DNA from: Proteromonas lacertae
Taxonomy: Eukaryota
Assembly (NCBI GenBank): GCA_002245135.1
Contig: NGBS01000299.1
Location: forward strand, 124,001 to 188,000
Reading direction: 5' to 3'
DNA: 64,000 nt
The notes beneath the pieces were generated by a model. The model ran no database searches, was not told where the DNA came from, and saw nothing but the letters and a program-made list of their open reading frames with translations. The position numbers and the translations under genes are program-made. Positions 11,427 through 63,700 of the stretch are shown piece by piece. Numbering within the stretch: position 1 is the first letter of the stretch; each line of letters opens with the position of its first letter.

Positions 11427-11440
11427 TTTGTCCATTTGAT

Positions 11441-13923: not shown

Positions 13924-14020
13924 TTATTAATTATTAATCATTTAGTTTATTGTGTTTTTGTAATTTGTTTGTCAATTACATGATTATTACATTAAACTAA
14001 AACATTGTTATTTTAATGAA

Positions 14021-15331: not shown

Positions 15332-15520
15332 AATTGATTAAAGGAAATGTATATATGTTTAATGGATTTTAATCTGTATCAGGTATTTTATATGTATATA
15401 TTTAAATAAATTTTTATGTTCTATTGTTTATTTTGCTTAAATTGTGGTTATTTTGAATAAATTGTTTGATCAAAAGTTTGAGCTACAGCCAATAGAAATC
15501 GTTATTAAGAATAATATCAA

Positions 15521-19052: not shown

Positions 19053-19124
19053 AAAAAACAGTTGGCTTGATTGAAAAACAAATCAAATAAGTTTGTGTCA
19101 TTATAGAATTGAATTTAATCAAAA

Positions 19125-21034
19125 ATGCAATCACATATAAAGAATATGCTGGAAAGAGAAGATTTAAGTAAACTTTCAACGACAATGGAAAGGTGCAAAA
19201 AATGTAAAGGTTGGGGTAAAGACTTAATTCAAGAAAATGGTTATTGTAATCACTGCAATAGAACAATGGGAATACCTTCCTCCACAAAAAGAAAATTTGA
19301 TGATGATAGCAACACAGAATCAAGAAAACATGCTAAAATAGAGTATTTCTATAAGATATATACACTAAATAGTGATGACTATGACGATGATGATGGAAAT
19401 AAAGTTCCAGAAGATGAACAACTTACTAAAGAAGATATAGAAAGGCTTTTAGCAGAAGCTGATGAAAAAGAAGTAGAAGAATTGGATTCAGTTGGAATAA
19501 ATAAATTAATCAAAGGTTTACAAACTAGAATTACAAAAAATCAAGAAGACCATGCAAAGTATGATGATCCAACAAAATTTGAAAATTCTGAAATAGAGCT
19601 ACTTAGTCATTTATATAAATTACAACTACTGTCTACAGTTCCAAATATGTATCCAGAGATAGTGAAGTTAGGTGGAGATAAATTGTTAATTGAATTGATT
19701 AATCATGAAAATATTGATATGTCAATTGAAACACTAAAACTATTGTATTTATATTTGTCATATTATTATTATTATTATTAAATAGAAGTGCGTTATTAGA
19801 CAGTGAAAATGTCTTAGAAAGTGAGGATGAAAGTAGAATATTAGTTGAATCACTAATAGATAATGGATTACTCAAAATTATGATAGAAAATATGAACAGA
19901 ATCAATGATAATGATGAAAAGGAATCAAATGGAATATATTACACATTATCTATTGTTGAATCGTTATTGGAAATTATGCCTATTGTGGCAATTAGATTAT
20001 GTAAAGAGACAAATATTTTATCATTTTTAATACAAAATTTAGGTAAAAAAGAGAATGACCAGAATAAATTATATTCAAGTGAAATATTGTCATTATTATT
20101 AGAAAGTGATTTAGAATGTAGAATTGTTTTTTTAAATCTCAAAATTGCAGTTGGAAATGGTAAAGAAGAACAGTCAATGGATTTACTATTGAGGGATATA
20201 AATATATGGAAAAAGAAAGAACCAACAACAAGTGAAGAAGAAGAATTAATAGAAAATATGTTTGACTCTCTCTGCTCATTATTATATGAAATAGAAGGTA
20301 AAAAACAGTTTTTAAACTTAGAAGGATTTGCATTTTTGAAAATTATTATAAAACAGCAAAAATATTGTAGAGTTCCTGCTTTTAAAGCTTTGGATTATGC
20401 ATTATTGAATAGTAAAGAGAATTGTGATAGTTTTATTGAAAATGATGGAATAAAATATCTATTTCCTGCTTTTATGGGTAAAGGAAATAAACACTCTTTA
20501 AGAAAGAAGAGTGAATATGAAAATGATGTTGAAGAACATATAATTTCTGTTATTGATACACTATTTAGTTATTATGATAATGAAACTAACAAAACAACAT
20601 TTGAAAGATTAGTTAAAAAATTCAATGAAAATGAGTTTGAAAAATGTGATAGACTGATTGAATTATTTGATAAATATTGGAAACTGGTTAGTAAAATAAA
20701 TAAGCAAACTATAAATCAAACATTAAAAGATGAAATGAATGAAGATGAAGTTGCTGAACAAGTATATTTGGCAAAACTTAATGCTGGGTTATTTACTATG
20801 CAGAAATGCGTTGTAATTATTGGTACTTTGTTATTTTATAAGCCACTTAGTGATCATATTGCTAGGAAATGTAAAGAACAAAATATTGATATTAATACAA
20901 TTAAAGTTACATTGGAGGATTATTATGATAGTTTGAATGAAGGAATTGAAGATATGAATGAAGATGATTTAAATGATTTGAAGAAGACCAAAAATAGGAT
21001 ATTAGATATACTATTAATTATAAAATCATTGTAA
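19125..21034 (+). CDS. CTNNBL1: Beta-catenin-like protein 1 (Prp19/NTC spliceosome factor)
   Basis: KNQEDHAKYDDPTKFENSEIEL, LINHENIDMSI, NKLYSSEILSLLL, EEELIENMFDSLCSLL, KFNENEFEKCDRLIEL, YLAKLNAGLFTMQ; two GT-AG introns. Confidence 0.93.
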
Positions 21035-27500: not shown

Positions 27501-28094
27501 TTACATGTTTCATCAATTACACCATCTTTAGCAATGAAGATAGATGCAAATGAAAATCAGTTGATAATCTCAAGTAATAACCTAGAAGAATGTCAAATCA
27601 ATTATTATATTATTGATACAGAATTGTTATTTAGTGATACACCATTTTTAAAGAAGATTGATTCATCAGTATATAATTATGTCTATCCCAATTACAGTGT
27701 AATTCAAAAGATAAGTGAAGAACATATGAAAATACCAATATTGGATGAATTTAAAAAGAAAACAGGAATAATTGAAATAGTTTATAATGGAAATCAAGTT
27801 CATGAATTATATAATTATTGCTTATTCAGTGTGATGATAAAAGAGAATATGGGAATATTGCAGATAATAGAGAATGAAAATCACAAACCATTACCTTGTG
27901 CTTATATAAAAGTATACAGCAAAGATGAGAATGATAAAGCTGAGTTTTATAAAGATGGATATAGTGATTTGAGTGGTAGATTTGATTATGCTTCGATTAG
28001 TACAGATCAAATGGATAATGCTGTTGAATTTGGCATTTTAATTATGAGTGAAAATCATGGAAGTTATATTACACAAGCAAAAGTGCCTAAGTAA
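21519..28094 (+). CDS. Large (~2,100 aa) uncharacterised protein with a C-terminal FYKDGYSDLSGRFDYAS motif; +1 frameshift near 23381
   Basis: ATG 21519 and four 5' introns join the ORF fragments. The reading continues across a 1-nt slip into the 1575-aa ORF, which ends YIKVYSK...FYKDGYSDLSGRFDYASISTD...ILIMSENHGS. Confidence 0.8.
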
Positions 28095-37796: not shown

Positions 37797-38938
37797 CTAA
37801 TATCTTAAATCAACAACTAAACATGTAACATTATCCATAGAACCTCTAAATAATGATTGTTGAATTATTTTTTGAGCGATTTCATCACAACTTGGATTCT
37901 ATAAATATAATATTAATACAATATAGAGATATATACTGAACCTAACATAGTTTTTATTATTTTACCAACATCAGCATTAGATAAAACATCCCATACACCA
38001 TCACTAGCAAGCACCATAAACAAATCATTCTCCTGTCTTGTATAAGTCATAATTTCTGGATCACTAGTAACATATGGTTTTAATGACTTATCACCTATTG
38101 CTCTAGCTACAGCTAATTGACCCATAACTCTAGGTACTATTCCCATTATCACTGTACCACCTAATCTTTGAATTCTTCTTCTCTCATCTGGTTTATTGGC
38201 TTTATGGTCTGATGACAAAGGCATTGTGTTGTTATTACCATTATTATAGTCCATGTTTGTACCATTGTTCTTTACAATTATACATCGTGAATCACCAACA
38301 TTAGCAACATATATTGTATCATTAATTACGCAGGCTACTATGGCACATGAACCACAATCTAATCGTTGTGCTATTGGCGTACTACAAAACATTCTATCTA
38401 ATGTATTGAATGTTTCTTTTAATGCTCCATCTGGATTGGTAGGGAATTTACTATTGGAGAATAATAATCGGGCACAATTGTCTGTACAAAATTGAGCAGT
38501 GTGAGTACCTCCATGCCCATCAAATACTGCATATATTGTTGATTTGTATGAATCTGTAAAATTTGATGTTACTAAATACCTATCTTCCATATAAGGACGA
38601 TGACCTTGGTTTGCATTTACTCCATATGGATAAATTGTGTCAAATTGTTGTTTTCTGGGTTTCTTTGGTGATAGTTTTTTGGATATTGGGGCAAGTGTAG
38701 TTTTATAACCAATATCGTTTACTTTTTCTGGACTCATATCTTTTACTAAAGATGGAGGAGCGGTTCTATTTAAGTCTATATTTTTATCAAAATATGATTT
38801 GTATATATTTTCATTTCCAGTATGGATAGTTTTTAAATGAGTGTAAGCAGGAGTGATTCTGTTTTTCTTATTCGGACTTATTGCTCTGGTAGCAGTAGCT
38901 GTTGATCCATATTTGTTATTATAAGTTCTATTATACAT
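37797..38938 (-). CDS. Protein phosphatase 2C (PPM family)
   Basis: GHRPYMED, AVFDGHGG, ANVGDSR, DHK, LAVARAIGD, LASDGVWD; the last exon supplies GSMDNVT. Confidence 0.95.
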
Positions 38939-39316
38939 AGTTATTTTACTATTACAAACCTATAAACTGTAATATTTAATAAAATATAAAACAAAACTCC
39001 TGAAACGACTATAATTTCTTAAATAAAAATAACGTCTAAACACAAACCATATCAATAAACATGAAAATAGTTGAAAATAATTGAAAATGATTTTTATAGT
39101 CTATTACATAACAGAAATACTGTTTTCAATTCACTTATCCAAAACTATTCGTTATTTTCGAAAAGCTATTTATTGACAGTGAATTATCGAATAGAATAAT
39201 ACCAATATTCTGTATTTATTCTGATGATTAAGATAGAATTAGAAATTAGGTGTTTGAAAATTTTCACACTTTCTTTTCTTCGTATGAATCAACAGTGTTA
39301 TTAGATCACATAAGTT

Positions 39317-42300
39317 ATGTCTTTCTTTGGTTTGTTTGGCACTAAAGACTTGAAAACATCTTTGTATCACCATTACATTGCTGATCGAATCCTTAGTATC
39401 TTTAATTCGATTTAATTTTAGTTATTGGTAAGGTCTGGAATGCAGCTACTGTGAAAGAAATACAAAGAAATAATGCAAGTGACCTAGCTAAGTTTTTGGA
39501 TGAAAATCATAAAAACCAATACCTTATATGGAATTTATCGTATATATCAAAATAGTAAGCATAATATAATGTAGTCAATCTGACTCATCAATATTTCAAG
39601 AATATAATTATCAAGTTTTGGATATAAATCTCTCCATACCCTACCTAGATACAATATTTAGATGTTGTTATTCATTAGAATATTGGCTTTCCTCAAATCC
39701 ACAAAATGTAGCAGTTCTTCATGGTTCACCGATTCTCTCATCTCTTTTAACAACATGTTATTTAGTATTTAAAGGCAATTTTGATAATACAGATAATGCA
39801 TTAGATTATGTACTTTCCGCTGTAACTCCTCCAATACCAATTGAATCATATCCTTTATTCTATCGAAGAGCACTATCAGATTTCAATATTGTATATAATC
39901 TCCCATCTTTACCAAATATTTTACCGTTACGTTTGATCGTTTTAGTAGTAGAAGGGTTAAGAATACCATGTAACGAAACAATACAACTGGATATTCTAAA
40001 GAACAATAGAACAGTCTATTCTACGCAGTGGAATATGGAAAATAATACTGTCAACTTTAGCGAAGATACACTTGTTCTATCTTTGGATTGCTTATTATGT
40101 GGTAATTACTATATAATTGGTTATACAGGTCAAAGTCCAGAAACTGGTAGGAAAATATTTAGATATTTATTTCACTCTGGTTTAATTGTACCAGGTCAAA
40201 CAACAGTATTGAATTCAAATAAAGTTGATTTGTATAACCATGATTATATTGAATCAGAAGAAGAATTTAAATTGATGTTACATATAGAAGAAATTGAATC
40301 TGAAAACAATAGTGGTTGTAATAATAAAACATCACAATATTTATTAATATTAAATTCAACAAATTATTATTTAAGAGGAAATAAAGCTAAGAAAGAAGGA
40401 TTAAAAGAAATAACAATGAATCATTTGGTTACTCCTTCAAATACATATTATTATGTTTTAATAACAAAAGGATATGGTGATTCAGAAAGTATTTATTTAT
40501 TTAAATCTATTTATTTAGCTACATTTGCATTACAAAGAACCAATAACAATTTAGAACTAAGTGAAGAACTTCTAGAACATTCAAAACCAAATATTACATC
40601 ATTAACTATACCAATTAATAAATTAGATTTTAATATTGATAATTATGTTGAAAGAATTCAAAGAGAGTTTCCAACATGTTCACAGGATTCTATTGAAGAT
40701 GATAATGATGATGATAGTTGTTTAAATATACTCAATAATAGTAATGATTATAAACCAAGAAGGTCATTGATTGTTACACCAAATAAACCATCTTCATATA
40801 GTACTAACAGCGTATATAATATAATATAATGTAATAGAATGATAATACTCCCGATTATAGTCATTATAATGACAGTAATAATGAAATAGAATCACTAACT
40901 CCAACCACAGCCAATATAAATAATAGTGTAATAATAAAAGATAATAGTAAAATAAAGTGCAATATATGTGGTATTGGTAATATAGATCAGAATCAATTAA
41001 TACAATGTAATGATTGTAGAAAATATTATCATACATATTGTGAAGGATTAAGACAAATTCCTTATAATAATTATCCAAATGATGAAAATATAAAGAGATT
41101 ATTATATGTATAATATTATATATATTATCTTTTATATAGATTAAAGAGTATTATTCAGATTGGACTTGTAAGTCGTGTGATAATAAGATATATATCAATA
41201 CACCACCACCTACACAACAACAACCACCATTTGAAATAATTATACCTAAATCAAAATCAATAGAGAAAGTAGAAGAAGAATTTGAAGAAGAAATGATGAA
41301 GAAGAATATGATAATTTCATCAATATCATCGCCATCTACTACTTCTGCTTCTACTTCATTGTTAGTTCCATTTCCATCAAAATCACCAATATCATCACCA
41401 ACTCATCATACAAATACTCCTAAACTATCACCTATATCAAATACCAAGAAAACTATAATATCACCATCAAAACTGTATATTAATAGCAATAATGTGAAAT
41501 ATATTGATCATCCTGTATATAAGAAATATTTTAAAATGTTGAAAACAGGAATTCCAATTCCTGCTATTGAACATTGTATATTGAAAGATGGATATAAATT
41601 CAGTATAAGTATAATCACTGAACATAATCCAAATGATATTGTTGAAGAAGAAAATAACATAGAAGTAAATGAAGAATATGAGAATAAAGGTAAGAATATA
41701 TTTTCAACTCATCTTCGTAAAATAGATAGAAATAGAATTAATGATATAAGTAATAATAAAACAGTTCAAAGACCTTCAATTGAGTTGAATTTCGCTGTTT
41801 CCCCAACTGTAGATAACATCAGTGATGATAATGACAGGAATATTGATGAATATATCAAACTATATAAATATGGTAAATCAATAAATGAAATATTAATAGA
41901 ATTATATGATAAGAAATTTGAACAATCAGTTATCGATATGTTCTTACAGAAATTGAACATAAATACACAAGAAATACAGTTTCAGAGAAATACTCATCCA
42001 TTATTAAAACAGTATTATAAAATGAAAATGGTTGGAGTTCCAATAGAAGCAGTTAATCATAAAATGATCAAAGATAATATAAATCCGAAATTATTAGAAG
42101 GAAGTGAGAATGATTTAATAGATTATGATTTATCAAAGTATAGTGATGAAAATGATAAAAATGATAATGATAATAATGAAGTTATATTAAAGAATCATCC
42201 AATGTATATATATATATATATATATATTATTATTATTATAGTTATGGTAAATACTTTAAGATGTTATCAATTGGAATGCCTCGTCAAGTGGTAGAACATA

Positions 42301-43916
42301 AGATGAAAATGGATGGAAAAGAAAGTGATATATCAATACTAGAAAAGTCACCAGATGATTTATATCCAATTAATCCAGCAAAAGAAGATAATAAGAGTAA
42401 AGAAATATCATTAAAAGATCATCCAATGTATATATATATATATATATATATATTATTATAGTTATGGTAAATATTTCAAAATGATTTCAATCGGAATGCC
42501 AATCCAAGTGGTAGAACATAAGATGAAAATGGATGGAAAAGAGAATGAAATATTCATTTTATCAAAATCTCCTAATGATTTATATCCTATTGATATTACA
42601 CAAACACAAACAAATGGTAATAATGAATCATCTCCAGTGAAAAAGGCTCAAATGAGACCAAAAGTAAGATCGAGAAAGATATTTTGGAATGAAATAAATA
42701 ACACAAATCTTGAAGTATAATAATATTCATTTATTATTATAATATTGTTATATAGAATTCCTTATGGAATAGTAAAATGTCAGATATATCAGTGGATAAT
42801 AGTGAAATTGAAGAATTATTCACTTTAAAAGAAACATCATCTCCAGAGTTAAGTCATTCTAAAGCAAAATCACCAGATATTGTATATTTATTCGTTTTTT
42901 CATATGTTTCAAAAATAGATTCGTTTAATAACAGATTCTAGGCGTTCAACTAATGTTAGTATAAAAGCAAAAAAGTTAAAAATATCACCATCAATAATAA
43001 GAGATTCAATAATTAATTTAAATAATTTAAACAGTAATAATATAAACATAGAACAATGGGAAATAATAGGATCAATACTTCCAACAAAAGAAGAAATGGA
43101 AATAATGAACAAATTTGGTGGAGATAAAAGTAGATTAGGTGAAACGGAAAGTTTTTTTATACAATTCATCAATATAGAAAGATTATCTCAAAGATATAAA
43201 TGTCTATTTATCAGTCTGATTTCAGAGATAAAACTGAATGATATTAAGCAACATATTGATGAAATCACTAAAGGGTGTAGTTTATTGATGAATTGCAGTG
43301 AGTTTCACAATATATTGAATATTATATTAGAAGTGGGTAATAAGTTAAATACAATAAGTTCAATGAAAGAAATAAAAGGATTTTCGATTTTATCACTTGA
43401 AAATTTTGTCAATACAAAGTCATTTAAAGGAAATATCACTTTATTACATTATATTGCGAAATTAATAAATGATACAAAACCAGAACTGTTTAAATGTATT
43501 GAAAGTTTGGATATTTTAAGAAATATATCAAAAATATCAATTGATTTGATATACAGTGAAGAAAAAGAATTCAATGAGAATAAAAATGTTGTTAAAACGG
43601 AGTATAATTATTGGGAAGGAAGGAATGCTGATTTAGCACTTAAATTAGATGAGATTTATCAACACTTACAACAATATAGTGATGATATTCATAATTTAGT
43701 ATATAAGTTCCACTAATATTTCTATAGATTAAATGTATGAATGAAAAGTTTGAAAATATGCTGATTTTCTTTGGTGAAGATGTAAATGGAGGGATTAAAC
43801 CAGAAGCTTATTTCTTGCAAGTTTCCAATTTCATATCACTGCTTAGTAAAGCACGTAATGAATGTCATCATATTAAAACAAGAATAACTCCTTTAAATTC
43901 ACCAAATCCTACATAA
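39317..43916 (+). CDS. Formin: N-terminal PTEN-like/C2 region, PHD finger, four HPxYxKYFKM repeats, FH2 domain
   Basis: PTEN-like (YLIWNLS, CYSLEYWLSSNPQNVAVLH, IFRYLFHSG) and FH2 (RKIFWNEI, ILEVGNKLN, IKGFSILSL, TLLHYI) motifs, joined by canonical introns. Confidence 0.88.
42187..42590 (+). repeat. Internal tandem duplication (~225-nt period) of an exon-intron unit in the formin
   Basis: Two near-identical copies of CATCCAATG-(TA)n intron-GTTATGGTAAATA...GTGGTAGAACATAAGATGAAAATGGATGGAAAAGA. Confidence 0.85.
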
Positions 43917-44231: not shown

Positions 44232-46745
44232 ATGGGATCCTTTGTTTCTAAACATGTCCCTGTAAAGGAACCTCCTCCTGTGGAGAGTCCTAAGAAGCAT
44301 AGAAAGGCTTCAATGAATCCTTCTGAAGCAGAAGGAGTTGTAGGTCTGAGAAATAAATTGGTAAGACATAATATGTGCACAGATATATGGGAGGTATATG
44401 CCCCAGGAAAGGTACTGGGTGAAGGAATGACAGGATGTGTGATGGAAGTGACAAAAAGATCAACATATAAAGTGTATTTTTTTTTTTTTAATTTATTTAT
44501 GCAATAGATATGCTATGAAGCAGATGAAGAAGAATAGGTTTGAATCTGGAGATATAAATGGTTTATTAAATGAAATAGATTTGTTAAAACAACTAGATCA
44601 TCCTAATTGCATAAAACTTTACGAGACTTATGAAGACAACAGGAAAATCTATTTAATTATGGAAGTATGAATATTTATATAATATAATAGGAATGTACTG
44701 GTGGAGAATTGTTCGATCATTTATCCAAACAAACAGGAAAGAAATTTTCCGAAGATATAGCAGCACAATTAGTAACACAGATGTTGAAAGCCATAGCATA
44801 CTGTCACAGCAAAGGAATTTGTCATAGAGACTTAAAACTAGAAAATTTTGTCTTCGAGTCAAACGAACCAGATGCTCAATTAAAATTAATAGATTTCGGT
44901 CTAAGTTGTAAATATGCAGCAGCATTAAAACACCGTCACCATAACAAAGGAGAATTACAGCGAATGCAAAGTGTAGTAGGCACACCATATTATATTGCTC
45001 CAGAAGTGTTAAAAGGCGAAGGTTATGGTATAGAATGTGACATGTGGAGTATGGGTGTAATAACATACATATTACTAACGGGTAAACCGCCATTTAACGA
45101 TATAACTGATCATGGAATAATGACTAAAGTGATGAGAGGGAAATACGATTTATCCGCTGCTAAATTTTATGGTTGTACGAAATATTCTAGAGATTTTATA
45201 TATCACTTAATGCAAGTAAAACCTAAAGATAGAATGACAGCAATGGAAGCATTGCAACATAAATGGATAAGACATTCACAACATAAGAAGGAAAGGAAAG
45301 AAGGAAAGAAAGCAATAACATTGAGTAAAGATATAATGAATAGTTTATTATCATTTGATAAGTATAGTAAATTTAAACAGACTGCTTTAGAAACAATAGC
45401 ATTTTCAATGAGTTTTAATGAATTAAAAGAACTACGAAATGCATTCCAAGCGATGGATTTAGATGGTAATGGTATAATCACATTAGAAGAATTTCAATTA
45501 GCATTTGAAAAGAATGGAGTTCATGATACTAATTTAGTAAAATTATTCAACTCGATTGATACAAATCAAACAGGTTCGCTATCATATTCTGAGTTTCTAG
45601 CAGCTACAATGAGAAGAAAAATGTTTTTAGATGAAGAAAGATTAATAGAAGCATTTGATCGTTTAGATGTAGATGGAAATGGTTATTTAGAAATTGATGA
45701 TTTTAAAAGACTAATGGGTGAAGAGTTCCAGCAAGAGGAAGTGGAAGAAATGATAAGAAGTGCTGATAAGAATGTAGATGGAAGAATTGATTTTGATGAA
45801 TTCATGCAGATGATGAGAGATGCTTATCAACGTACGATTAAGAGAACTCTTAATCAAGAAGAGATTGAAGGATATAGTGCTGTATTAGGAATGGACGGTA
45901 AATCACCTCTACCTGATGATACTAAACCTGCTGCTACAAATGCAACAACTGGTAAAACTACTACTACAACTGGTGATACAGTAACTCCTGGTACAGTTGA
46001 TACTACAACTACAACTACAACTACAGTTGATCCATTAATATCACCTAAATCATTAGCTATAAAGAATAGCAATATAAATAGAAACGGTAAATTAGAACCA
46101 TTAAAAACTAAGAATAATGATGAATTGCCATTAATAAAGAAATTATCAAAGAATAAAATAGTTCCACAACCTCCTACTACTTCTCATAATATTAATACAG
46201 ATAAACAACAACAACAACAACAACAACAATTGAATAATAGTAATAATAATTCAATAACTCCTTTAGAACCACTCAATCCTAATCTATTATTAAACAAATC
46301 ATCTATTAACAAAAAGAAATCTGTTTCTCTTACTGGTGTATCTAGTAATACTTCTATACCTAAAGATAATACTGTAAAGAGTGATGAAGCTGTAGATATT
46401 ACAGTTAAACCATTAGTAGTACATCCTCCTCATTTACCTCCAATCAAAAGCAACATACCACAACAACAATCTTCACCTCATTTATTGAAAGCTGGTAATA
46501 CAACTAGCGCTACTAATTATAGCAGTACTAGTAAAGATGATATGCGTATTAGAGAAAGACCAGCTAGTGTTGGAATACCTGAAGAAATGATTACACCAAA
46601 TTCTACAGGTAGACAGTTTTTGTATAATGATACAGGTATAGGTATTGAGATGGATGGTTCTGTTGATATAAATATTGGTGGAAATATTGTTGCACTTGAG
46701 AAGACTCCGCCAATTGATGATAATGGTGTTGTTGAACAGAATTAA
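44232..46745 (+). CDS. Calcium-dependent protein kinase (CDPK) with a long low-complexity C-terminal extension
   Basis: MG start; LGEGMTG, HRDLKLEN, DFG, GTPYYIAPE; four EF-hand loops (DLDGNG, DTNQTG, DVDGNG, DKNVDG); two introns. Confidence 0.95.
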
Positions 46746-46912
46746 TCAAAGCATACACTGTTAGAATCTTATTTATTTAAATCTAGCCCTAACTTATATA
46801 AATACATAATTGAATATTATAGTTTATTATGTTGTTTCTTGATCTATTTCTACAGAAAATTCTTGTGTAAAGAAGGAGGTTTGTGCTAAGGCTTGAGTGA
46901 AATTAAAAAAAA

Positions 46913-48562
46913 ATGAATAAAACTCCCATAGGAATTGATCTCGGTACTACATTCTCATGCTGTGGAGTATATAAATCAGATAAAGTAGATATAATAGCAT
47001 ATAATAGCGGAAAAAGGACTATACCTTCAGCTGTGTATTATAACCCAGAAACAGATGAAATTGTTGTTGGTAGTGGTGCAAAAGATGATGCATCGAAAAG
47101 TTTAAAGGTTATTTATGACTCAAAGAGATTAATCGGCAGAAGTTTTGATGATCCTGTTGTTCAGAACGATATGAAACATTGGCCTTTTAAGGTAATCAAC
47201 TGTGATGGTGTTCCTAAAATTGAAACTACATATAATAATGCTACTGTAAAATTGTCAGCAAGTGATGTATCTTCAGAGATTTTGAAATGGATCAAGAAAC
47301 AAACTGATACATTCATAGATGAACACAAAGAAAATAGAAAAACAAAAGCAGTTATAACAGTTCCAGCATATTTTGATAATGAACAAAGAAAAGAAACAAA
47401 AGAAGCTGCAGAAAAAGCTAACTTGGAGGTAATTCAAATATTAAATGAACCAACAGCAGCAGCAATAGCATATGCCTATCAGAAAATGGGGAAGAATTTA
47501 AAAGAATTATCGAGGATGGGTGAAGATATATTTCTAATTTATGATTTTGGTGGTGGAACTTTTGATGTTTCAATTATCAAAGTATTCTATGATTTGAAAT
47601 TCATTCAAGTGCTAGCAACTGATGGAGATAGTCATTTGGGAGGAGAAGATATTGATCAAAGATTAATAGATTATTATTTAAAGAAATATAAAGAGATTAA
47701 TGGAACTGATTTTTTACCAAGTAGTAAATCTCATCCTGATTATGATAAATTAATGAAAAAGGTGATGAGGTTGAAAGTGTTAGTTGAAAGTGCAAAAATG
47801 ACTCTAAGTGATTCGCTTGAAACAACAGTAGATTGGTCAGTATTTGAAGATGAAGATGATAGTGTAAAGAAATTGACAAGAGCAAATTTTGATGCAATTT
47901 GTGAATTAGGTCAATTCTTTACTCCTGAAGAAATCAGTGAAAGGAAATATAAGAAGATATATAGCAGTACAATGGACTTAGTAGATAAAACCATTAAAGC
48001 TGCAAATTTAGAACATAAAGATATTGATAGAGTGATATTGGTTGGAGGATCTAGTAAAATAGTAAAAATTAGTGAATTATTAAGAAAGAAATTCCCAAAA
48101 GAGACTGTAATATCTAAAGATATAAATCCAGATGAAGTTGTAGCTCATGGTGCTACTCTCTTTGCTAATATTGAAGGTTTAAAATTTGCTGTTTCTGATG
48201 TTATTTCTCATAACATCTATACTAATATATTTGAAAATGGAAAAGATGATTTTGATTTAATTATTCCAAAGAACACATCACTTCCCCATCAATCTCTACA
48301 TCCTAAAACATATGGTACTTTTGAAGATAAACAAGGGTTTATGTACTTTGATATTTATGAAGGAGATGAGAATGGTAAGAAGAAATTAGAAAGTAAAAAG
48401 TTGGATTTGAAAGTTGATCATAAAGATAACAAAGCTGGAATGTACTATGTATCTTGTATATTTAATGTGGATAAAAGTGGGATTTTAACTGTTGAAGCTA
48501 CAGATTTACAAACAAATGAAACAACAACACTTTCTGTTCAACTCGCAGTAAGAAGTTTATAA
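46913..48562 (+). CDS. Divergent Hsp70 (549 aa), intronless, lacking the helical lid and EEVD
   Basis: GIDLGTTFS, TVPAYF, NEPTAAAIAY, YDFGGGTFDVS, HLGGEDID, LVGGSSKI, NPDEVVAHGA; ends just after the SBD-beta FNVDKSGILTVEA. Confidence 0.92.
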   Translation: MNKTPIGIDLGTTFSCCGVYKSDKVDIIAYNSGKRTIPSAVYYNPETDEIVVGSGAKDDASKSLKVIYDSKRLIGRSFDDPVVQNDMKHWPFKVINCDGVPKIETTYNNATVKLSASDVSSEILKWIKKQTDTFIDEHKENRKTKAVITVPAYFDNEQRKETKEAAEKANLEVIQILNEPTAAAIAYAYQKMGKNLKELSRMGEDIFLIYDFGGGTFDVSIIKVFYDLKFIQVLATDGDSHLGGEDIDQRLIDYYLKKYKEINGTDFLPSSKSHPDYDKLMKKVMRLKVLVESAKMTLSDSLETTVDWSVFEDEDDSVKKLTRANFDAICELGQFFTPEEISERKYKKIYSSTMDLVDKTIKAANLEHKDIDRVILVGGSSKIVKISELLRKKFPKETVISKDINPDEVVAHGATLFANIEGLKFAVSDVISHNIYTNIFENGKDDFDLIIPKNTSLPHQSLHPKTYGTFEDKQGFMYFDIYEGDENGKKKLESKKLDLKVDHKDNKAGMYYVSCIFNVDKSGILTVEATDLQTNETTTLSVQLAVRSL

Positions 48563-51507: not shown

Positions 51508-54500
51508 ATGAATGAGTTTTATATTACATTTATATTGTTTTCCATGCTATTTTATCAATGTGTATGTATAAAAATAGGGTTATTAGAAGATACATCCACA
51601 TCTGGTAGTAATTCAAGAATTACCAACGCATTTACTAAATACAGTGATGCTGCAAAACGGTATAGTGACAATGTAAAGTTTGAAACGTTTCAATATAATT
51701 ACCAAAGTGATGACTTTTCAACTTTATGGAAGAATATCGAAAATAATGTAACTGGTGTTGATGTTATAGTATCGTCATGTAGTTTCCTACTGCATGATAC
51801 TTCCATTGACAAATATTCAATTATTTCTGACTCATCTGTGACTATGTGGTGTGGTATTGAAGATTATTTTTCACTTTGTATTAAAAATATATATTTTTAC
51901 AGTTCAAGTAAAGCTTTCATTTATAGATGTATAATTTTTTTATTATTTTATACATCACTAGTTGCAGAATACCTATTATATTATAAACCAGACCGGAAAT
52001 TACTCATCTTATCAGATGAATCAAGACAATCATCAAGCTATTATAAATACTTTAGAGATGTTGTTAATGCATTAGAACTTGATTCGATAGTTGATAATAT
52101 TACAGTTTCTTTACCAATGACAAGTAGTGAACATAATACAATAATTTCAAAGTTAAGTACAACAGTTGAAGTGGTGGATTTATTATCAGAAGCAAATGCA
52201 AAAACACTGATTTCACTATCAACAACTGGAATTACATTTTATCATTCACCATTATTACCAGAACAAGATAGTCTTGTTGATGCTGCAAATACTCATTATC
52301 ATTTACTATCTGTAATAGACAGTTATGATCTTCCACCATCAAAATTAAAAGATTTGAGAAATATCTTATATCCAGCTGCTTCAAATACTCATTTACATTA
52401 CGATGAAGTTCAATTTACTTCTGTTTTCTATATTGTTTTTCAAATATTTTCTAGAATTAGAAACAGCAATTATCGTGCTATTATTGGATCTTCATTATTA
52501 TTAGAATTCACAACTTATATTGATAAAATAAAAATAATGAATGATTTTCATTTTGATACTGATTATTATATTGGTAAATATGATAGTATTACAGGAAAAT
52601 TAGAATATGAGTATACACAAACTAATAATTGGTATGATGTTTATTACATTTATGGAAAACCGAATATACAATATCAATGTAATTATTATAATGAAATATC
52701 CACTACAACTGGCAAATCAAAATCAACATCTGTAATATTTGTGTTTTTTATTGATTTGACTTACTCTGAAAAAGATATTAATGAAAACATGTATGTATTA
52801 ATGATGATGATGCAAGAAGTGTCGAATATTGTTAGAAATGTATAATATATTTACATTATTTTACAAACTTTATAGGGAAATATTTCATTTTCATCAGATA
52901 TAGTAGTTGAGCCAGCAATAATACCATATAGTCCTGATTCTAGTAAATTACCTGCAATAATTGGGCAATTAGCTGGTTATGTTGTGTCAGGGAGAGCAAG
53001 TGGAGTGTTTGTAATAGTTCCTGGTGAAGATAAGATAAGAATGATTAATGGTATATATACTTTAGTTTATTTATTGTTGTATAGATATTTCAAGCGTTCC
53101 TTTCCCAATATTGATATATCATATTGGTGTAGAAGAAGGAGAAAAATGTAATAGTAAAGTAATATTTGCAGGAACATCATGTGGACAAGAAGCCAAAATA
53201 ATATTAGAAATGCTTAGATCTGAAAAAATGAGTATGGTTTATATAGTCGCATCATTAACACCAGTTTCTCAAACTTGTATGAAAGTGATGGAATTTACAT
53301 TTGCAGAGAATGGAATAGAAGTTGTTGGAAGTATTGATATTCTTGGTGTTAAGAAAGAAGATGGAATTCCTGTAGCACAAGCAATAGAAGGAAGTTTAAA
53401 GGAAGATGATCCATTTTATATTATTAATCTAGCAGAAGGAAAATATTATCCTGCTATAATACATGGACTAGCTACTATAGGTGCAGATTATTATCATACT
53501 ATAAATGCTTTGATTAATGAATATGATATCAAGTCTGTAGATCAAAATGAACTAGATGATAGTGGTATACAATATTTTGTAACTGTCTTTCATAATGGGA
53601 TGAAAGGAAGTTTGATGGACGAAATTAAAGGAGTAGTGACTAGTAGAATTGGTAGAAGTAATGATGTTTTTATTACTTCCAATTTTTTCATTGTTCATAA
53701 TCTGTTTAAATTGTATGTGAAGGCTGTAACCTATTCACAATCAACAGATCCTATATATTATCAAAAGTATAGTTATTCACTTTATGTTATTTCTAGATTT
53801 TTTTACAATTATCCTATTATCAATGAGAATGAAATATATTTGATTTCATCAGCAAATTATGCAGATACACAATTATATATTTTATCTTTTGATGTATATA
53901 TATATATATATATATTATTTCTTATAGTCAAATGGTTATGAACAAGTTCGTGAAAGTAGAGGTGTTTTCCGTTCATCTGCATTTATTAATCGAACTATTC
54001 AATGTAATTTCGTTCAAATTTATTCTGGTATTTATTATATAAATATAGATGTATAGATTTAAATTATGATAACATAAATAAGAATGACGCATATACAGTG
54101 ATTGTGTTATTTAATCCATTTGATAATTCTCATGCTAGTTATATTATTGATTTTGAGTTTATTTTTCAGATTATTAATGAGTTGAAGATAAACGGAAGAT
54201 CTCTTTTAATCAGGTATTACACAGTGAATGAAACAGATGAGGAAACATATATAGATGCTATTGAAAACTCATATGAAGAGTATGGTGATGATTTGTTATG
54301 TTTTATTACATCTTTATCATATCTTTTTTATTATTTTATTTGATTGGTATTGTAGATTTCTTAATTACATTGTAAAGCAGAAATGGCTGCATCATTCGCA
54401 TTTGTATTAGAAGATATTGACAGATTGTTACTTATTCCACCACAAGTTGAAGAAGCAATTTGTTTAAAGAATATTATTGTGGTATAAGTACAATATTTTA

Positions 54501-57500
54501 ATGTTGTGTAGGTTGGACCAGTTTTATTTCAAAGAATATTATTTGGTATTATTGAAATGGTGAGATTAGTACAGAATCTTTTAATTGTTACTGATGAACC
54601 ATCATATTTTGCTACTGTAATTAAATTCATCAAAGTCTATTCTTCAAGATTAGGAGTTACTTGTTGTTTAAATGATGTTGTTGATTATCATAATGAAGTT
54701 ACTTCTAGTCAATTAATTAAAGCTATAGATGATGGTTTTTCTACTGTAAATCATGGAGCAATAATACTATTATCAAAAGATTATACTGAAGATGTTTTAG
54801 AAATGATTTATAATTCGAAATACAATAATCATGATGTTTGGCCTGTAATTGCTTATGATGTTGATGAAAAAACGGTCAAAGAATCTACAAACCCTGAAAT
54901 ATGGGAGAATATTTATATTCCAGGAATTTATATGCCAGATAGAGAAAATAATGAAAATGTCATTCTTAGAAGATATTTAAATAAGTTCTATGGTAGGAGT
55001 TATAAAATCCTTACTAATAATATAATGACTATGTATGAATCATTGTTGTTTGTGAAGAATGCAGTTGAAATGACCTATTCAGTTAGTGCTCATATTCTTA
55101 AGAAGGCAATGTATGGTAGAAAGTTTAATACTCCAGAAGGATTAATCGCTCTAAGAGAATCTAATCATTTTGATCATTATGTATCTGTTGGTAAAGTTGT
55201 TAATATTACAGGAGAAATGGAGTTAGTTTCATGGTTTCAATTCAGTGAATCAATTATTCCAACAGTTTATTTACCTTTATTTGAAGGTGGCTATTTCATT
55301 TGCGATGCTAGTAGTGATAATTCTACAGGAAAAACAGTTGAAAAATCAATAACATTTTTGTTTATAGGTAATTATAATAATGAACCTGATGAATCTTTCA
55401 GAATATTGTTAATATTGCAAGGTATGGTGAATAGTGTAAATTCAGAAGGTGGATTGTTTGGTTATACTGTTGTATATTGTTGTTTCTTTATTTTGGTTAA
55501 TAGGAATTAGCTACTCTTACATGTGTGAATAATGAAACTGCTGCTTCAGCTGTTGCTATACAATCTGTTGGTTTAGGATCAGCAATTGTAATGAGTAATT
55601 GTGATTCACATGATCAAAAATTGTTATATGAAGCATTTAAAACTGTTCATTTAACTATTTTATCTTTTGGAGAGAATATAGGAGGAGAATGCATTGAGAA
55701 TATGTATTTTTATTAATCTGTTTATATTTATAGGGTATATGCTCATTCTTCTCCATATCAAGATGTTATCACTACAATGATAGAATTCATTCAAAAAGAA
55801 TATAATTCATATTATCTTATCACTGTGAAAGATCTAAGTTTATATAAAAGATTTGAAGTAGCAGATAAATTTTTAGATGTTTTATCACAGAGATATAATT
55901 ATAGTATTATTGAAGATGCTAATACTGTTGATGATGCATATATTGAAGAAATAGTATATAAGGCAATAGATTTATTTGGTAATGAAGGAGGATTAATATT
56001 TACTTTTTTACCAGCCAATTTAGTCAAAAGACTCATGAGAGTATATAAAATATATACATCAAAGCTATTGTATGAAGGTAATATATTCTTTGCATATTAT
56101 GGTGATTTAAATTATGATGAATTAGCTTATTCTGACTGTATTGGTAATTATATGGTTGCGCATTACAACCCATATAACACAAGTAAAGAGAATATTGCCT
56201 TTAAAACATTGATGGGTGATTCATTTAGAGGATCTGAATATCGCTACTCTGATATATTAGCTTACAGCGTATTTTTGTTATGGAAAAATCTTGTTCTATC
56301 AGCACATCAATTGTCAGTTGAAGCAATAACAAATCAAATGAAAAGTGTGTCAGTTAATTCTCCATTAGGTGTTATTAGCGTTGATGAATCTCAACATTTG
56401 AAACAATCAATTTTCATTATAAATATTGCTGAAGAATATAATGATTCATTAGTTACACATATTTCTCAGAATATTAGTGGAAATCCTTTCTTTGAGGCTT
56501 TTAATTCAGAATCAGTAAGTTTATGTGATTTAGAAATTAGAAAAACTAATAATTACCAACCAAATTTATATTATGTAGGTATATCATTACCATTAGATAA
56601 ATTATCCACTTCAAATGCTATGTATATTTTAAGAGGTGTTTTAAGTGGAATTGAATATGTAAATAGTAAAATATCAAAATCCACTGATTTATATATTGTT
56701 CCATATATTTTGAAAGATGAAAATGATGAAGATTTATATTTAGAATCTGTAGAAGCATATGGTAAATTATTGGCAAAACACAATAATACAATTAGAGGAG
56801 GAATAATTATAGGAAGTGGAACATTATATCTTTTTATAAGTATTTATTTTTACACTTAGTAATTCTTAATTTTATTTACAAATTTTATAAATGCAACAGA
56901 TTTATATGAAGAATATAATATTATATACTTTTTTGTTGGAAGATATCTTGGTGCTACTTGTGAAAAGAATATTGTGTATATGACCGAATCAATCTATAAT
57001 AACGTATATATTATATTTATTATATATATAGTTTGTGTTTATCAATTCAATTGTAAGTTTTGGAAAAGAGACAATATGTATAACATATGATAAATCTGAA
57101 TTGTCAACATCAATTTATACATATTTAAAAACACAATTAGAGAGAATAGGAAAAACTGTAATTGATATTATGTTAAGTGAAGATAGATCTAATACAGATG
57201 GAGCGTTAGTAACATTACCAGTTTTAATGCCAGATGGTGGAGTTATCGTTAGTTTGTTGCAAGGAAAATTGTCGAAAGAATTACTTATATCATTGTACAA
57301 ATATAATCTTCAAGAACCTGATTATCATATAATGTGTTATTTCTATGATTCAATTGTTACTACTTATTATCTAACAGCTCCATTAAATACATATGTTTGG
57401 ACTTATTTTGCTGATACTGATTCTCAACAATATAAATTTATAAACAGTATATTTTCTAATATGTTATATTCTGATGAAAAAGCACTTTTATCATTTGCTG

Positions 57501-60500
57501 TGATGGAATTATGGTGTAATGAAGTTATAATGAATAATAATCGAGATATGAAATATTTACTTCAGAATATGTATGATAAAACATTAAATACAGTAATGGG
57601 TAATATCAAATTTGAAACATCTAATACTATTAGTAATACACTTAGTCTTTTCTATTTTAATGGAAAACTAAACGTGTATTATGATTCTAGCTATTATGTT
57701 AGAGTCACTGTTTATAACTTTTATAGTGAGAAAGTTTTAACGTGTGATTGGATAAAAAATAAAGATACAGGTGGTATAAATGAAAAAAGAATTATTAAAA
57801 TAGCATTATTACATAGTGTGTATGGAAGTGAAGCACCATTTGCTAGAACTTGGTTTTTAGGTTTTGAAATAGCAGCACAATACATTAATCAAATAATTAC
57901 TAATTCCATTTTAGTAATAAAAGTGTTTAATGATGATTCTGATATATCTAAAAGAAGGCAACAGTTAGAACTTATATATGAAGAATATAGTGATGTAGAA
58001 GTGATTTTTGGATGTAGAACTTATCAATGTTTATATCAAGTCGAAGATATTATTAAAAGACATCCAGATAAGTTATTTATTAGTACAGCAAGAAGTGTAG
58101 GAATGAAATGTAATAAGAACATAATTATAACTGGAGGAACACCAAATCAATTCTTAGAACCTGCTATTAATCATGCAATATCATTTGATAAATATTCAAA
58201 ACTGTATTTCATTGGTATGAATGATACATTCTGTCATACTTTATATGATATGATGCAATCTATATATGGAGGATTAATTAAAGTAGCTGGTGCATTTTTC
58301 GTTGAAGACACTCAATATGTTGTTGATGTATCAAAATTGTATGAAGCAAAAGATGCGTTAGGTGATTCTGGTTTATTTATAGTTGCATTATCATCGTCAA
58401 TCCTTATTAATTTTGTAAAATCCTTCAACAAATATCAATTTGATAAACAGAAATATGGTATTTTTACATTAATCAATGAACCAAATGAATTAATTCAAAA
58501 TGTTTCACCAGAAGAATATGAAAATATATATTTCATTGGTTCATATTTTAAAGGAATGGAAACAAATTATTCTGATGTGATATATTATTATATGTCTAAT
58601 AATAATTATAGTGTATCATTCACAAAATCATTTCAAACGTTTATGTTATGGAGTGATTCATATTTTGATTTGAATAAGACAAATCCAACAGTTGATGAAA
58701 TGAGAAAAAGAATGTATGTTACTCCAATTAAAGGAATCAGAAATAGAGTGCAATTACATACCAATAATTATTTAATTCAATCAGTTTTAACAATCCAAAT
58801 GCAAAAAGATGGAACATATGATATAATTGTACCAGAATCTGATCTTATTATCCCTAGAGATTTTGATATACTTTATGAGAAATCATACAATTGGAAATGT
58901 GACTTTAACACTGGAGAAATTGTACATGACGATGTTAGAATGATTCTATTTGCTTTGTCTTTATCTGGTGAAGATAATGATTATTATAAAGGAGTAGTAA
59001 GTGTTATTGAGATATTCATTAATACTGCATCTAATGAGAATATCTTACCATATCTATTATCTTACATAGTGAAAGATATTAAATCTGATGATGATACTTG
59101 TATTAACGTTATTAATCAATATAAATCAAAAGTAATAGCAGTTTTTGGTACACCAACAAAACTGTGTGCTGAATCAATTGATTTTGATGATAGTAATGTT
59201 TTATTCTTCAATTTTGGTATAAGATCTGGAGATGTATGCAAAAGAAATTATTTTTACACTTATTTGGATATATCTCAATACAGTGAACCAATAAGTTCAA
59301 TTGCATATACTAATACGAATGGAATAGCTGTAATTGGATGGGAAAGACATGCTAGTTATGTTGCTGATTTATTAAATACATTATTATCTGATATATTATG
59401 GGTAAAATATGTAACAATTAATACTGATCCGTATGAAATTTTAAATGATCCAAGTGTAACTATTCATGCAGATATGGCAATTATATATTGTGGGCCATAT
59501 GATTTTAATAGAGCATTCCAAAAAGTATTAATGGAAAAAGGATATGGAATAGGTGACATAGAATACATTTCATTTACTGATAGTATGAGTAATATTGATG
59601 GATTAGATCTAACTACATATTATTATTCACCTTACTTTTTAGAAATTGAAAGTGAGAGTAATAAGAGATTTAGTAATTTGATTACTAATTTAGTAGGTAG
59701 TTTAGATTTATCTTTTGAAATGGAAGTATTGTATACTAGTGTATATTTTATATCTTTCACCTATATATTTTTTTATAGTTGGTTATGTATTATAAAGTAC
59801 TTCAAATTGTCATTGATACAGATAATAGTAATGCAATTCTTAATGAACTATTAGCTCTTAGTTTTGATTCTCCAGAAGGTGTTGTTTCATTCACAAAAGA
59901 CCATCACTTGAAACATTCCATTAGAAATTTTGATGTTATGAAAGGTGGATTAGGTAGTTATGAAAGTAGTTTTGTATCAGGAGAAGCATTTTTATATAAC
60001 TATTCTTTACCAACACATAGATTCTGTATATTTGATAAGAATCTGCCAGTGATAAATAGCAAAGAAGTTAATTATTTTGCTTTAGTATTATCTAATTTTG
60101 ATAGTGAATATTACCTATTACATGCTGCTTTATATGCTGTAAATGTGATTAATAGGGATGGTGGATTAGGTGGTAATTATATAGGATTAAAAACCTATTA
60201 TTGTTCATATGAATATGAGGATTGTTATAATCATATATTACAGTATCAAATTGATGAAAATGTCCTATTTATTATTGTTGGAAATAGTGATGATGCACTT
60301 TATTATTATTACGATAAAATGAGAAAAAATAATGAAACTGAGTATTTTCTAATCGATTTTCCTCAATCAAGTCATAATCTTTGTAATGATTTAGGATTTC
60401 ATTTTTCTGCTACTGAAAATCAAATAGCAGAATCTGTTGGTGTATCTTTCAGTAGAAACTGGAATTAGAGTGTTCATAGTATATTCTGATAGATATAAAT

Positions 60501-63500
60501 CTTTAATGGAATATGCTAAATCTTATTATACTAGATATAATATGAATATCTGTGGTAGTTCTATACTAAATGATGTGAATAATATTGATTATGTACTTGA
60601 TTTAATAACAGTGAATGATGCGACTACCATATTAGATTTTACTGATTTAGAAGTATCTACTCTTTTCAGAAGAAGTTATTGTGAATTGATACTAGACTCA
60701 ATAAAATATCCAATCATTGGCATTTATCATGAAAGTGAATATTTTGCTGTTCCTTCAGAATGTTTAATTGGTCATTATTATGTGACTACATTCCATGAAA
60801 CACTTGGTAATTCTGGCCAACCACAAGGTGTACCAACCCCAATAACTGCAAATACTTTTGTTGTTGATATGAAAGGATATATAGGAAAGAATGAAGCTAT
60901 TCTACCAATAACAGAGCAATTATATTCAGCAATGAGTAGTTTTGGTCAAATATATAAAGAGATATATACAAATGATCCAACAGTAGTTCGTAAATCATTA
61001 ATCAATAGATTCTTTAATACACCAAGTGGTGGTATGTCTATATCTGATTCATATTTTGTTGAGAGAAGAATTTGGGCTGTTCATTATACAAATGATGGTC
61101 CAGAATTAGTATATTGTATAGATGTAGCAATTGCTCCAGATATATTTAATTTATATGATAGTAATAAATATGGATCAACGTGTGTATTAGATGATAATTA
61201 TAAAACAATAATTGTAAAACAGAGGACAAAATTATTATTATTCTATCATGAGTTTACTGGTTATGATCAATTAAATGAAATTACAAGAGCAATGTTAGAA
61301 GAAGTGGTTGTTAACCAGATGAATAGAGATAAAGTATTTCCACATATTACATTAATTCCAAAATTCGTCTTTGGTTATATAGATAATTTTTATTTAGAAA
61401 AACAATCAAAAGAGTATTTATTCAATGAAGATGTTATAGGTGTATTTGGATGTACAACTCCATTCTGTAGAAATGGTGTAGCTAAATCATATGATGAAGA
61501 AAGGAAATTGTTCTTTTATACTGGTTATAATGAAGGAGAAACTTGTTCAAAGTATATATTGAATTTTGGAAGCTTACCAAATCAAAAATTAGATGCAATT
61601 TTCACATATGCTAAGAGAAGTGATATTGTTACATTTTTGTTGCTTGCCAATGAGGATGAATATTCTTCACTCTATATTAATCAAACTTTACAATATATTG
61701 ATAATAATAATAACTCATTGTTAGGTGTTTGTAGATTCGATATGTATGATAAGAAGAAAAATGTGAGTGGTTTAAATGATTGTATTAATTATTATTTCTA
61801 TAACAACTTAATAAATGGGAGATTAGCTGTCTTGACATTCTATTATGGAGATTCTTTAACAAATTACATACAGTATTTAATAGATGGTAAATTTAATCCA
61901 AGACAAGCTGTTCATTTTCTTTTATTCTTTGATAGAAATTCATTGAAAAGAATGAATTTGGGAATCTTACAAAATAGTTATATAGTAACATTATATGAAC
62001 CAAGTATAGTATCTGATGAAAATAATTTATATACCATGACAATGAAGAATGAAATATATCACAATATATATGTTTCTGAGAATATGGAAATTACATACAC
62101 TGCAATGAAGTTTTGGAAAGAGATGAGTTTAACGGCAATGAGTAGAAATGGTGGAGTTATTCCAAATCAAGAATATATGCGTATGTTATCTAAAGAAATA
62201 TTGTCACAGTCACCATCATGTTCTGTTAGTTTAAAGAGATCAAATTTTATAACAAATTGTCCTTATATATTACAAGTAACTGAAGATGGTAAAGCAATTC
62301 AAGTATATCCTACATCTGGTGAACAAGTGATGATTGATCCAAAACCATATGTGAATGATGAAGATACAAAAGAAAAGTGTTCATTTGGTAAACTAGAATC
62401 TATATATGATTATCCTTATGGTGTTGTTTTAACAATAAGGATTATTTATTACATTTTAATGGCAGTGATATTGTTACTGATAATATTTATAAAGAAATAT
62501 GATACTACAAGAATTATTAGATTATCATCTCCTCCATTTTTATACAGTATATTAGCTGGATTGTTGTTTTTATCAACAACTTCGTTATTCTTTACATTTA
62601 GGCCAAAAGATCAACCATGGGTATGTGATGCGAGAGTATGGTGCTTATCTTTGTCAATTTGTATTGTGTTTGGTATTTTACTAACAAAAGCGTGGAGAAT
62701 TCACAAGTTATTCAACAATCAACAATTGAAGAAAGTTACTATATCAAATACACAATTGTTTAGAATGGTAGGAATAATTGTAGTTGTTCAATGTGTTTAT
62801 ATAATGATATGGTGGCTTGTTGATCCATCTCATGAAACTTACAACATTAATGATGGCTATTCATCATATTGGGAAGATGTGTATATATCAGAATGTACTG
62901 AATCATATCCCTTTATAGTGATAGAATTATTACTGATGATTGCATTCATGTGTTGGGGTGCTCATCTTGCATGGAAAGTAAGAAGAGCAAGTGAAGAATT
63001 TAATGAGTCAATTTCATTAGCATTTACTGTTATTGGTATTTTATTCATTGGTTTTATATGTATAATACTGAATTTTATGCTTGAATCTGAACCACCAACT
63101 TTAATGATTATTAGAGGTATAGGTATTGAATTAGGTGTTGTGATTATTATATTCTTCCAGTTTATAACTAAAATGATCAATGTTTATGCTGAAATATATG
63201 GTGACAGTACTACTTTTGTTAATGGATCAACTGAACTTTCATCAAGAGCATCTAAAAAGATAAAGAAATCAATAATTCAATCAACAAGATATAGTAAAAC
63301 TGTTTCAAGAGATGTAAAAATATTCTGTGTTAATCCATATAAATCAACTGATTATAAAGATCTAGCAACTTCCATGTTACCATATATTAAGTATCTAGAT
63401 CCTGATTTAATGAAAGTAGGAGATGCAGATATTGATGATAAAATGGAGATATTTGATCCAAGAAGTTCTTTAGGAGGTTATCATAAATCTTTAGTTAGAG

Positions 63501-63700
63501 TTTCCTGCTTGAATCCTACTCCTAGTAATACAGCTCCTATAAATCTTAATACTAGTCGTAAAGATAATAATGCTAGTAATATTACAATTCCTAATAGTAA
63601 TGCTACAAGTGTATCAAACCTTAATCGAACTTGTCCTTCAACCATATCTTTGAAATTAGTTCCTGTTCCTGAATTAGATTTTGAGGAGATGAAAAAGTAG
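51508..63700 (+). CDS. Giant class C (7tm_3)-like GPCR, ~3,900 aa, with about nine tandem UrtA/AmiC-like periplasmic-binding domains; +1 frameshift near 60440
   Basis: Signal peptide, 13 introns. The 7TM carries class C motifs IIRLSSPPFLYSILAG, CDARVW, ILLTKAWRIHKLF, LAWKVR...FNES. Repeats carry IFGC...[E/G]GxxCxxNIxxxGxxPNQ. Confidence 0.88.
54319..54375 (+). other. U12-type-like AT-AA intron (57 nt, phase 2) in GPCR repeat 3
   Basis: Donor ATATCTTTT, branch TTCTTAAT with its A 11 nt from the end, terminal TGTAA. Removal restores the frame CFITSLS-AEMAAS. Confidence 0.72.
56826..56879 (+). other. U12-type AT-AC intron (54 nt, phase 2) in GPCR repeat 5
   Basis: Donor ATATCTTTT, branch TTCTTAAT with its A 10 nt from the end, terminal TTTAC. 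Removal deletes in-frame TAG TAA and gives IIGSGTL-NFINATD. Confidence 0.85.

Follow-up and report, generated by a model that had tools for sequence, protein, structure and literature searches.

Two short introns with U12-type signals, probably of non-ancestral origin, at neighbouring positions in two modules of a predicted class C receptor gene of Proteromonas lacertae

Minor (U12-type) introns are mostly seen as ancient relics that undergo loss and only rarely gain. A predicted receptor gene of Proteromonas lacertae (contig NGBS01000299.1, positions 124,001 to 188,000; this stretch of 64,000 nucleotides (nt) is called the window, and its own numbering is used throughout) raises the question of how two such introns could come to lie at almost the same place in two repeats of a sensor domain resembling a bacterial protein. 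The gene (51508..63700, + strand) contains the predicted intron A (54319..54375, + strand), which is 57 nt long with AT-AA ends and splits Ser882 in module 3, and the predicted intron B (56826..56879, + strand), which is 54 nt long with AT-AC ends and splits Leu1668 in module 5. Both are in phase 2. In this study, we report the analysis of the two introns and of the family of their host gene. Judged from sequence, A and B are probably real short U12-type introns of non-ancestral origin, B being well supported and A less so. Since they lie in a bacteria-related, urea-binding-like domain, they can hardly be ancestral, and at least one U12 intron would have been gained late under either of the two leading explanations.

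Both introns begin with the donor ATATCTTTT (54319..54327 in A and 56826..56834 in B, + strand), which differs from RTATCCTT by a single C-to-T change. Both also carry the putative branch motif TTCTTAAT close to the 3' end (54358..54365 and 56863..56870, + strand), with the branch A located 11 nt from the end in A and 10 nt in B; the consensus of the U12 branch site near the 3' end is TTCCTTAAC. The exact motif TTCTTAAT was found in none of the ten GT-AG introns predicted in the same gene, two of which come within one mismatch of it. Beyond the donor and branch motifs, the sequence common to A and B is merely AT-rich. A GTATCTTTTT donor is listed as U12 in Table 1 of PMC7367187. As to the ends, AT-AC is a canonical minor form (as is GT-AG) and AT-AA a documented non-canonical one, the commonest of its kind in plants and in animals (PMC10639083); the plant and animal examples count among conserved minor introns, whereas intron A sits in a bacteria-derived domain. 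An earlier note on this DNA, made from the letters alone, had given the coordinates, ends, phase, lengths, both motifs and the branch distances, and all were found correct on re-reading the sequence. Its placing of both introns just after the IFG-equivalent strand of modules 3 and 5 was likewise confirmed, as was the lack of a minor intron at this site in the other seven modules, where the family profile shows read-through.

Could such motifs arise by chance in AT-rich DNA? The window has a G+C content of 26.8% and the character of a eukaryote with short introns, and RTATC[CT]TT occurs 34 times on its two strands. A relaxed U12 pattern (donor, branch and end) matched three times, against 0.28 expected from 200 shuffles, 8 of which reached two matches and one of which reached three. 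The third match, at 48123 on the - strand, lies antisense within an Hsp70 gene (46907-48562) and was taken as chance, so that chance matches to the relaxed pattern do occur. The exact pattern, which was fitted post hoc, matched twice against 0.015 expected (0/200 shuffles). A loose pattern gave no excess in the window (15 matches against 11.2 expected), and the 13 other loose matches were set aside as being at chance level.

Because both stretches hold in-frame stops, an intron is required at A and at B, and the question becomes which ends are used. The rival to minor splicing is removal of GT-AG introns by the major spliceosome at one or both sites (for example 56840-56899 and 54300-54377), or a decaying pseudogene, with the U12 motifs present by chance; the antisense Hsp70 match and a one-base frame break elsewhere in the gene speak for it. 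Nine splice forms per junction were scored against the family profile, covering five of the seven listed GT-AG rivals at A (two 129-nt forms were left unscored) and all five at B. The AT-AA form of A scored 119.4 bits against 109.9 for the best GT-AG rival (+9.5), and the AT-AC form of B scored 157.5 against 153.6 (+3.9), each being the highest of its nine. The order was unchanged when the closest homologues, P0006 and P0007, were removed from the profile (119.3 against 109.6 for A; 148.2 against 144.6 for B). In pairwise alignments, spliced A matched module 3 of P0014 without gaps (score 17, with three GT-AG forms at -2), and spliced B scored 82 against 73 with P0007. The junction 54300-54377, which had been proposed as the alternative to look for, was 9.7 bits lower than AT-AA and deletes a conserved strand, the GT-AG forms of A in general removing that strand. 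The rival introns would also be 60-126 nt long, far above the 28-38 nt norm of the gene. Two further ends were discarded: an AT-AG end at 54377 for intron A, which is absent from the frame-restoring forms, and, for intron B, an AT-AT end falling at its branch motif, which gave a lower profile score.

Further evidence on B came from its orthologues. The exon upstream of B, used as query, retrieved two orthologous open reading frames (ORFs), P0163 (74% identical) and P0164 (70%), which align up to the split codon of B, read YLF through the donor like the window, and then diverge and stop. Immediately after YLFF, the nine members of the P0164 cluster differ in length in ways that shift the frame, a kind of change not tolerated in coding sequence; the length variation may be polymorphism or noise from the assembly of a T run. 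In the P0164 tail the three reading frames permit a single offset solution, fixing TTCYTRAT as the counterpart of the branch motif, which is thus retained in the orthologous intron. There, AC is possible 9 or 12 nt past the branch A and AG is impossible within 7-17 nt; the 12-nt end would read on as N-x-I, resembling NFI of the window, and would place the orthologue's acceptor. The residue at the rival donor 56840 is Phe or Leu in both P0163 and P0164, which cannot be an xGT codon, so that this donor is impossible in both. The split codons start with TC in the orthologues of B as well as in A.

Several of these observations also have a side that weighs against minor splicing. The profile margin for B is 3.6-3.9 bits, and 56840 is a typical major donor lying just 3.9 bits behind; the YLF read-through is compatible with a GTATTTATTT major donor as well; and the retention of the B signals in two of two close orthologues is judged by protein read-through alone and covers B only. 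Two metagenome scans for relatives confirmed 0/597 and 0/241 pattern matches. On balance, intron B is very probably spliced at its predicted minor-type ends and intron A is likely to be, and GT-AG splicing at one or both sites, or pseudogene decay, appears improbable. The minor-type identity first read from the letters is thus supported by the best profile fit among the scored splice forms and, at B, by an orthologous break with a branch-like motif.

In the general scheme for minor introns, U11 pairs with the donor and U12 with the branch site. In this gene, U11 would pair with ATATCTTT and U12 with TTCTTAAT, the 3' end would be fixed by its distance from the branch, and AC and AA could for that reason both serve as ends; removal of A and B by the minor spliceosome would then yield the full-length nine-module receptor. 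We infer that a minor spliceosome operates in the organism. A scan of the 64-kb window with Rfam gave no match, hence no minor small nuclear RNA (snRNA) within the window, a point that counts for GT-AG splicing. A known parallel is Blastocystis ST1, for which 346 U12 introns were reported together with the complete set of four minor snRNAs (PMC5608401) and, in a later survey, 253 minor introns, 77% of them AT-AC, with a median length of 39 nt and possibly recent (PMC10639083). Its minor introns are short and mostly AT-AC and its major introns measure about 30 nt (PMC5608401, PMC10639083), in likeness to the present gene; the available portions of these papers differ in making no mention of U12 introns placed in repeated domains. 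The G+C content and intron size of the window resemble the figures given for gut stramenopiles (Proteromonas G+C 27.0%, Blastocystis introns of about 30 nt; PMC10690189). If minor introns were as frequent as in Blastocystis ST1, a gene with 12 introns would have two or more of them by chance in 0.6% of cases; minor introns are described as clustering in genes (PMC7367187). In mechanism, then, A and B are probably ordinary short U12 introns, and it is their origin that is unusual.

The origin has to be read from the host gene. The receptor model has 12 introns and 3919 predicted amino acids (aa), results from selection among frame-restoring junctions, carries an X at the frame break near 60439, and shows a hydrophobic N-terminus, nine Peripla_BP_5/UrtA-like modules, a 7tm_3 domain and a tail. 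The ten predicted GT-AG introns (28-38 nt, + strand, within 51929..59778, chosen among frame-restoring candidates) are located at 51929-51961, 52840-52875, 53051-53084, 53894-53927, 54028-54056, 54482-54511, 55472-55503, 55704-55733, 57004-57031 and 59741-59778. A Pfam scan identified Peripla_BP_5/6 in several receptor exons and the 7tm_3 transmembrane domain at 62411..63157 (+ strand; PF00003, 140.9 bits against a cut-off of 33.5). With 7tm_3 above the curated cut-off and a periplasmic-binding-protein-like ectodomain, the product belongs to the class C (Glutamate) G-protein-coupled receptors (GPCRs), and the nearest Atlas clusters are class C receptors, mostly of diatoms. Self-BLAST of the receptor model left the internal repeats undetected, and profiles were required to see the modules: a family profile made from 128 modules of 29 homologous proteins, with the protein of the window excluded, detected nine. 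Module 3 (54089..55342, + strand, approximately residues 806-1194) and module 5 (56563..57787, + strand, approximately residues 1581-1961) are just 14-20% identical to each other. Four receptor exons matched the UrtA model TIGR03407 (NCBIfam) at 33-74 bits, far below its curated cut-off of 492.75, and the relatives in the PDB are the solved urea-binding proteins 8hic, 7s6e and 7s6f. By similarity, the modules are akin to the bacterial urea-binding protein UrtA, and the cut-off places them outside UrtA membership. These matches bear out the earlier suggestion that the intron arose in a bacterial-like domain; under single origin, independent gain and re-insertion alike, a minor intron would have been gained after that domain entered the gene.

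Among 1.84 billion representatives searched, 117 matched; the best matches are long ORFs with 21-29% identity and a single orthologous exon with 71%. The receptor and P0006-P0030 belong to a family of class C GPCRs in which nine UrtA-like modules stand in tandem; among the homologues, the nine modules of P0008 (3745 aa) score very strongly for UrtA (2996 bits summed), and 7tm_3 is present as well. The frame break in the receptor gene lies in module 8 (60430..60445, near 60439, + strand) and is either an assembly error or a real lesion. The alignment with the homologue P0007 spans it without a missing block, and a minor or GT-AG intron at 60440-60442 was rejected as its explanation because it removes residues aligned with P0007.

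Class C receptors with various periplasmic-binding domains are on record from fungi and amoebae (PMC3251606, PMC12716839, PMC12965686), and those of fungi, Dictyostelium and diatoms share with the present receptor a 7tm_3 domain joined to a Venus-flytrap-type sensor (PMC3251606, PMC12716839). They have one ANF-type domain, whereas the receptor has nine tandem UrtA-like modules, an arrangement without mention in the available portions of these sources. A literature search, with most subscription papers outside its reach, found no description of nine-UrtA receptors, no published case of minor introns occupying matching sites in internal repeats, and none of a minor spliceosome in Proteromonas.

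Do A and B occupy the same position? The earlier note had called their positions homologous. In the family profile they fall in columns 111 (A) and 112 (B). When 3 module-3 and 14 module-5 sequences were aligned profile to profile, the residue interrupted by A fell opposite the one just before that interrupted by B (posterior 0.93), and MAFFT alignment of 31 modules placed the sites one codon apart in 7/7 settings. Alignment of the nine modules of the window alone gave an offset of one column in three of five settings and of ten in the other two. An identical position is thus not borne out: A and B are a near pair, 3 nt apart and in the same phase, rather than a pair within the same codon. The length of the helix following B is variable, the window having one residue too few and P0007 one too many, so that flanking indels could have moved one intron. 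The chance of such closeness was 0.26% for the same phase within one codon and 0.6% for any phase within 3 nt; among all 66 intron pairs, some pair would be this close about one third of the time. The pair found that close is the two minor introns, and the GT-AG introns share no column. Near intron pairs, in which two introns at homologous sites are separated by a few bases, are attributed to sliding or new gain (PMC2891723); they were defined between orthologous Drosophila genes, whereas A and B are minor introns lying in repeats of one gene.

Three explanations of the near pair were weighed, the weights being a matter of judgement rather than computation. The leading one is that a bacteria-derived sensor module gained one minor intron, which was copied by module duplication, that one copy then shifted by one codon, and that several losses followed in paralogues; this single origin has a plausibility that comes close to even without reaching it, and takes about half of the weight if both introns are real. 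Spread by duplication presupposes that modules 3 and 5 are related, that one intron moved by 3 nt and that losses occurred several times, whereas independent gain calls for a pair of rare events at almost one spot. The second is that two U12-type introns were gained independently in the clade of the gene after the nine-module array had been fixed, their closeness being due to chance or to a context that favours insertion (an exon ending in TC or TT, within the loop that follows the strand); it is a serious contender, not far behind the single origin in likelihood, though by itself somewhat unlikely. The third is that one gained minor intron was re-inserted at a similar junction of the same transcript, by reverse splicing or transposition and with no module duplication.

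In a 55-row tree (7 family proteins, two P0008 modules and two single-domain matches), the modules grouped by array position, the classes of modules 5-9 having Shimodaira-Hasegawa-like approximate likelihood ratio (SH-aLRT) support of 97-100. A 149-row FastTree was in broad agreement on the positional grouping, with weak support for the module-5 class. From this positional clustering it follows that the nine-module array predates the paralogues. A sister relation between the classes of module 3 and module 5 was not rejected (approximately unbiased (AU) test, p 0.53), and the two classes may be sisters. Holding modules 3 and 5 of the window alone together, as expected of a recent copy within the gene, was rejected (AU p 0.010); the AU tests used quick trees without a mixture model, and long branches were flagged. 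Re-insertion would account for two minor introns in one gene and none in its paralogues, and the exon ends of A and B are alike. Against it stand this rejection of a recent module copy, the 14-20% identity of modules 3 and 5, which leaves no target homology, and the AT-rich remainder as all that A and B share beyond their two motifs, so that re-insertion seems very unlikely.

The distribution of breaks in the family bears on the other two explanations. At site B, 13 of 27 ORFs are unbroken and two, the orthologues, are broken; 11 start downstream within module 5 and were unscorable, and one starts later. At site A, the two ORFs that span the site are both unbroken (P0026 being assigned by module order only). 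The family ORFs look genomic, as many end in intron-like tails, and some may be spliced contigs. The position of the GT-AG intron at 59741 is common to 3/23 informative ORFs (P0006, P0015 and P0017 end there), and P0007, nested among them, lacks the intron though its relatives end there, so intron losses do occur in the family. Columns 176-185 of module 9 are the end point of 7/27 ORFs (P0011, P0014, P0016, P0019, P0020, P0027 and P0028), mostly with intron-like tails, at a place where the window has no intron. P0029 stops at column 115 of module 9 but lacks a tail of the YLF type, and was left out of the count of breaks. Of the 92 weaker matches of the homologue search, 7 stop in the early part of a module, all of them away from column 112.

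Much of this weighs against a single origin with duplication. As the array predates the paralogues, a duplicated intron must predate all of them as well; yet all the distant homologues spanning the site, 13/13 for module 5 and 2/2 for module 3, read through it without a break, and so do 86 copies of modules 6-9. None of the ten GT-AG introns shares a column with another, as expected if introns came after the array had formed; the one-codon offset appears in every family-based alignment; and intron sliding is held to be at most very rare (PMC10639083). Most of the same facts favour independent gain, namely the offset, the absence of both introns from 15/15 informative distant module-3 and module-5 homologues and from the 86 further copies, the restriction of intron 59741 to 3/23 ORFs, and the lack of shared GT-AG columns, together with the possibly recent gain of minor introns in Blastocystis ST1 (PMC10639083). 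Independent gain is in turn opposed by the positional coincidence (0.26-0.6%) and the rarity of two minor introns among 12 (about 0.6%), by the scarcity of documented de novo minor gains (PMC2831892, PMC10639083), and by the 11 ORFs that begin just downstream within module 5 and so leave room for an older break at or after the site. Of the spread by domain duplication proposed in the earlier note, the relatedness of the module-3 and module-5 classes stands as possible, and the offset, the older array, the 15/15 unbroken homologues and the unshared GT-AG columns go against it. The full chain of de novo birth of a minor intron in a bacteria-derived urea-binding-like domain, spread within the gene by repeat duplication, an exact one-codon slide and a switch of the end from AC to AA is a tentative proposal that we put below an even chance.

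Comparison with known systems brings out what would be unusual. The four-domain Na/Ca channel genes likewise have two minor introns in one gene for a repeat-built membrane protein, spread by duplication (PMC2831892, PMC10120453, PMC6865273). In these accounts, as far as their available portions go, whole-gene duplication spreads the introns and the AT-AC site in common is reported from the first domain alone, whereas the pair in the receptor occupies nearly matching sites in two repeats within one protein. Both sliding and the de novo gain of minor introns are termed rare (PMC10639083). Known or candidate gains, such as the Physarum expansion, dipteran Zrsr2 and 55 candidates in young human genes, are also non-ancestral; A and B differ in lying in a domain similar to a bacterial urea-binding protein, so that the gain would postdate the acquisition of that domain. 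If birth, spread and slide were true, the gene would hold a dated record of how a U12 intron was born, spread and slid, in a protist lineage with introns of about 30 nt and within an undescribed family of nine-sensor class C receptors. Many paralogues share the nine-module frame, and their genomic DNA could separate gain, duplication and slide from two gains at a favoured site, a decision that bears on how minor introns arise.

A further proposal, compatible with each of these readings, is that slow minor splicing limits receptor output and that intron retention releases soluble ectodomains of two or four modules. On retention, the frame would stop after residue 889 (A) or 1678 (B), before the membrane domain, and a regulatory-switch model for minor introns exists (PMC6865273). 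Distant paralogues, however, manage without introns A and B. Moreover, transcripts with early stops, here far upstream of later introns, are by default expected to decay. A role of this kind is therefore considered unlikely, and no regulatory function is needed for either intron.

Elsewhere in the window, a tandem array of at least 11 paralogous genes (1721-17309) has the common motif PPP-Y-Y/F/H-T/S-D/E-Y, and Pfam gave no match for the single exon of the array that was scanned. A single-exon ORF at 23367-28094 (1575 aa) likewise had no Pfam match. The other neighbours of the receptor gene are CTNNBL1 (19119-21034), a PP2C phosphatase (37913-38959), a formin with CCDC53-like repeats (41140-43716) and a kinase with EF hands (44691-46745).

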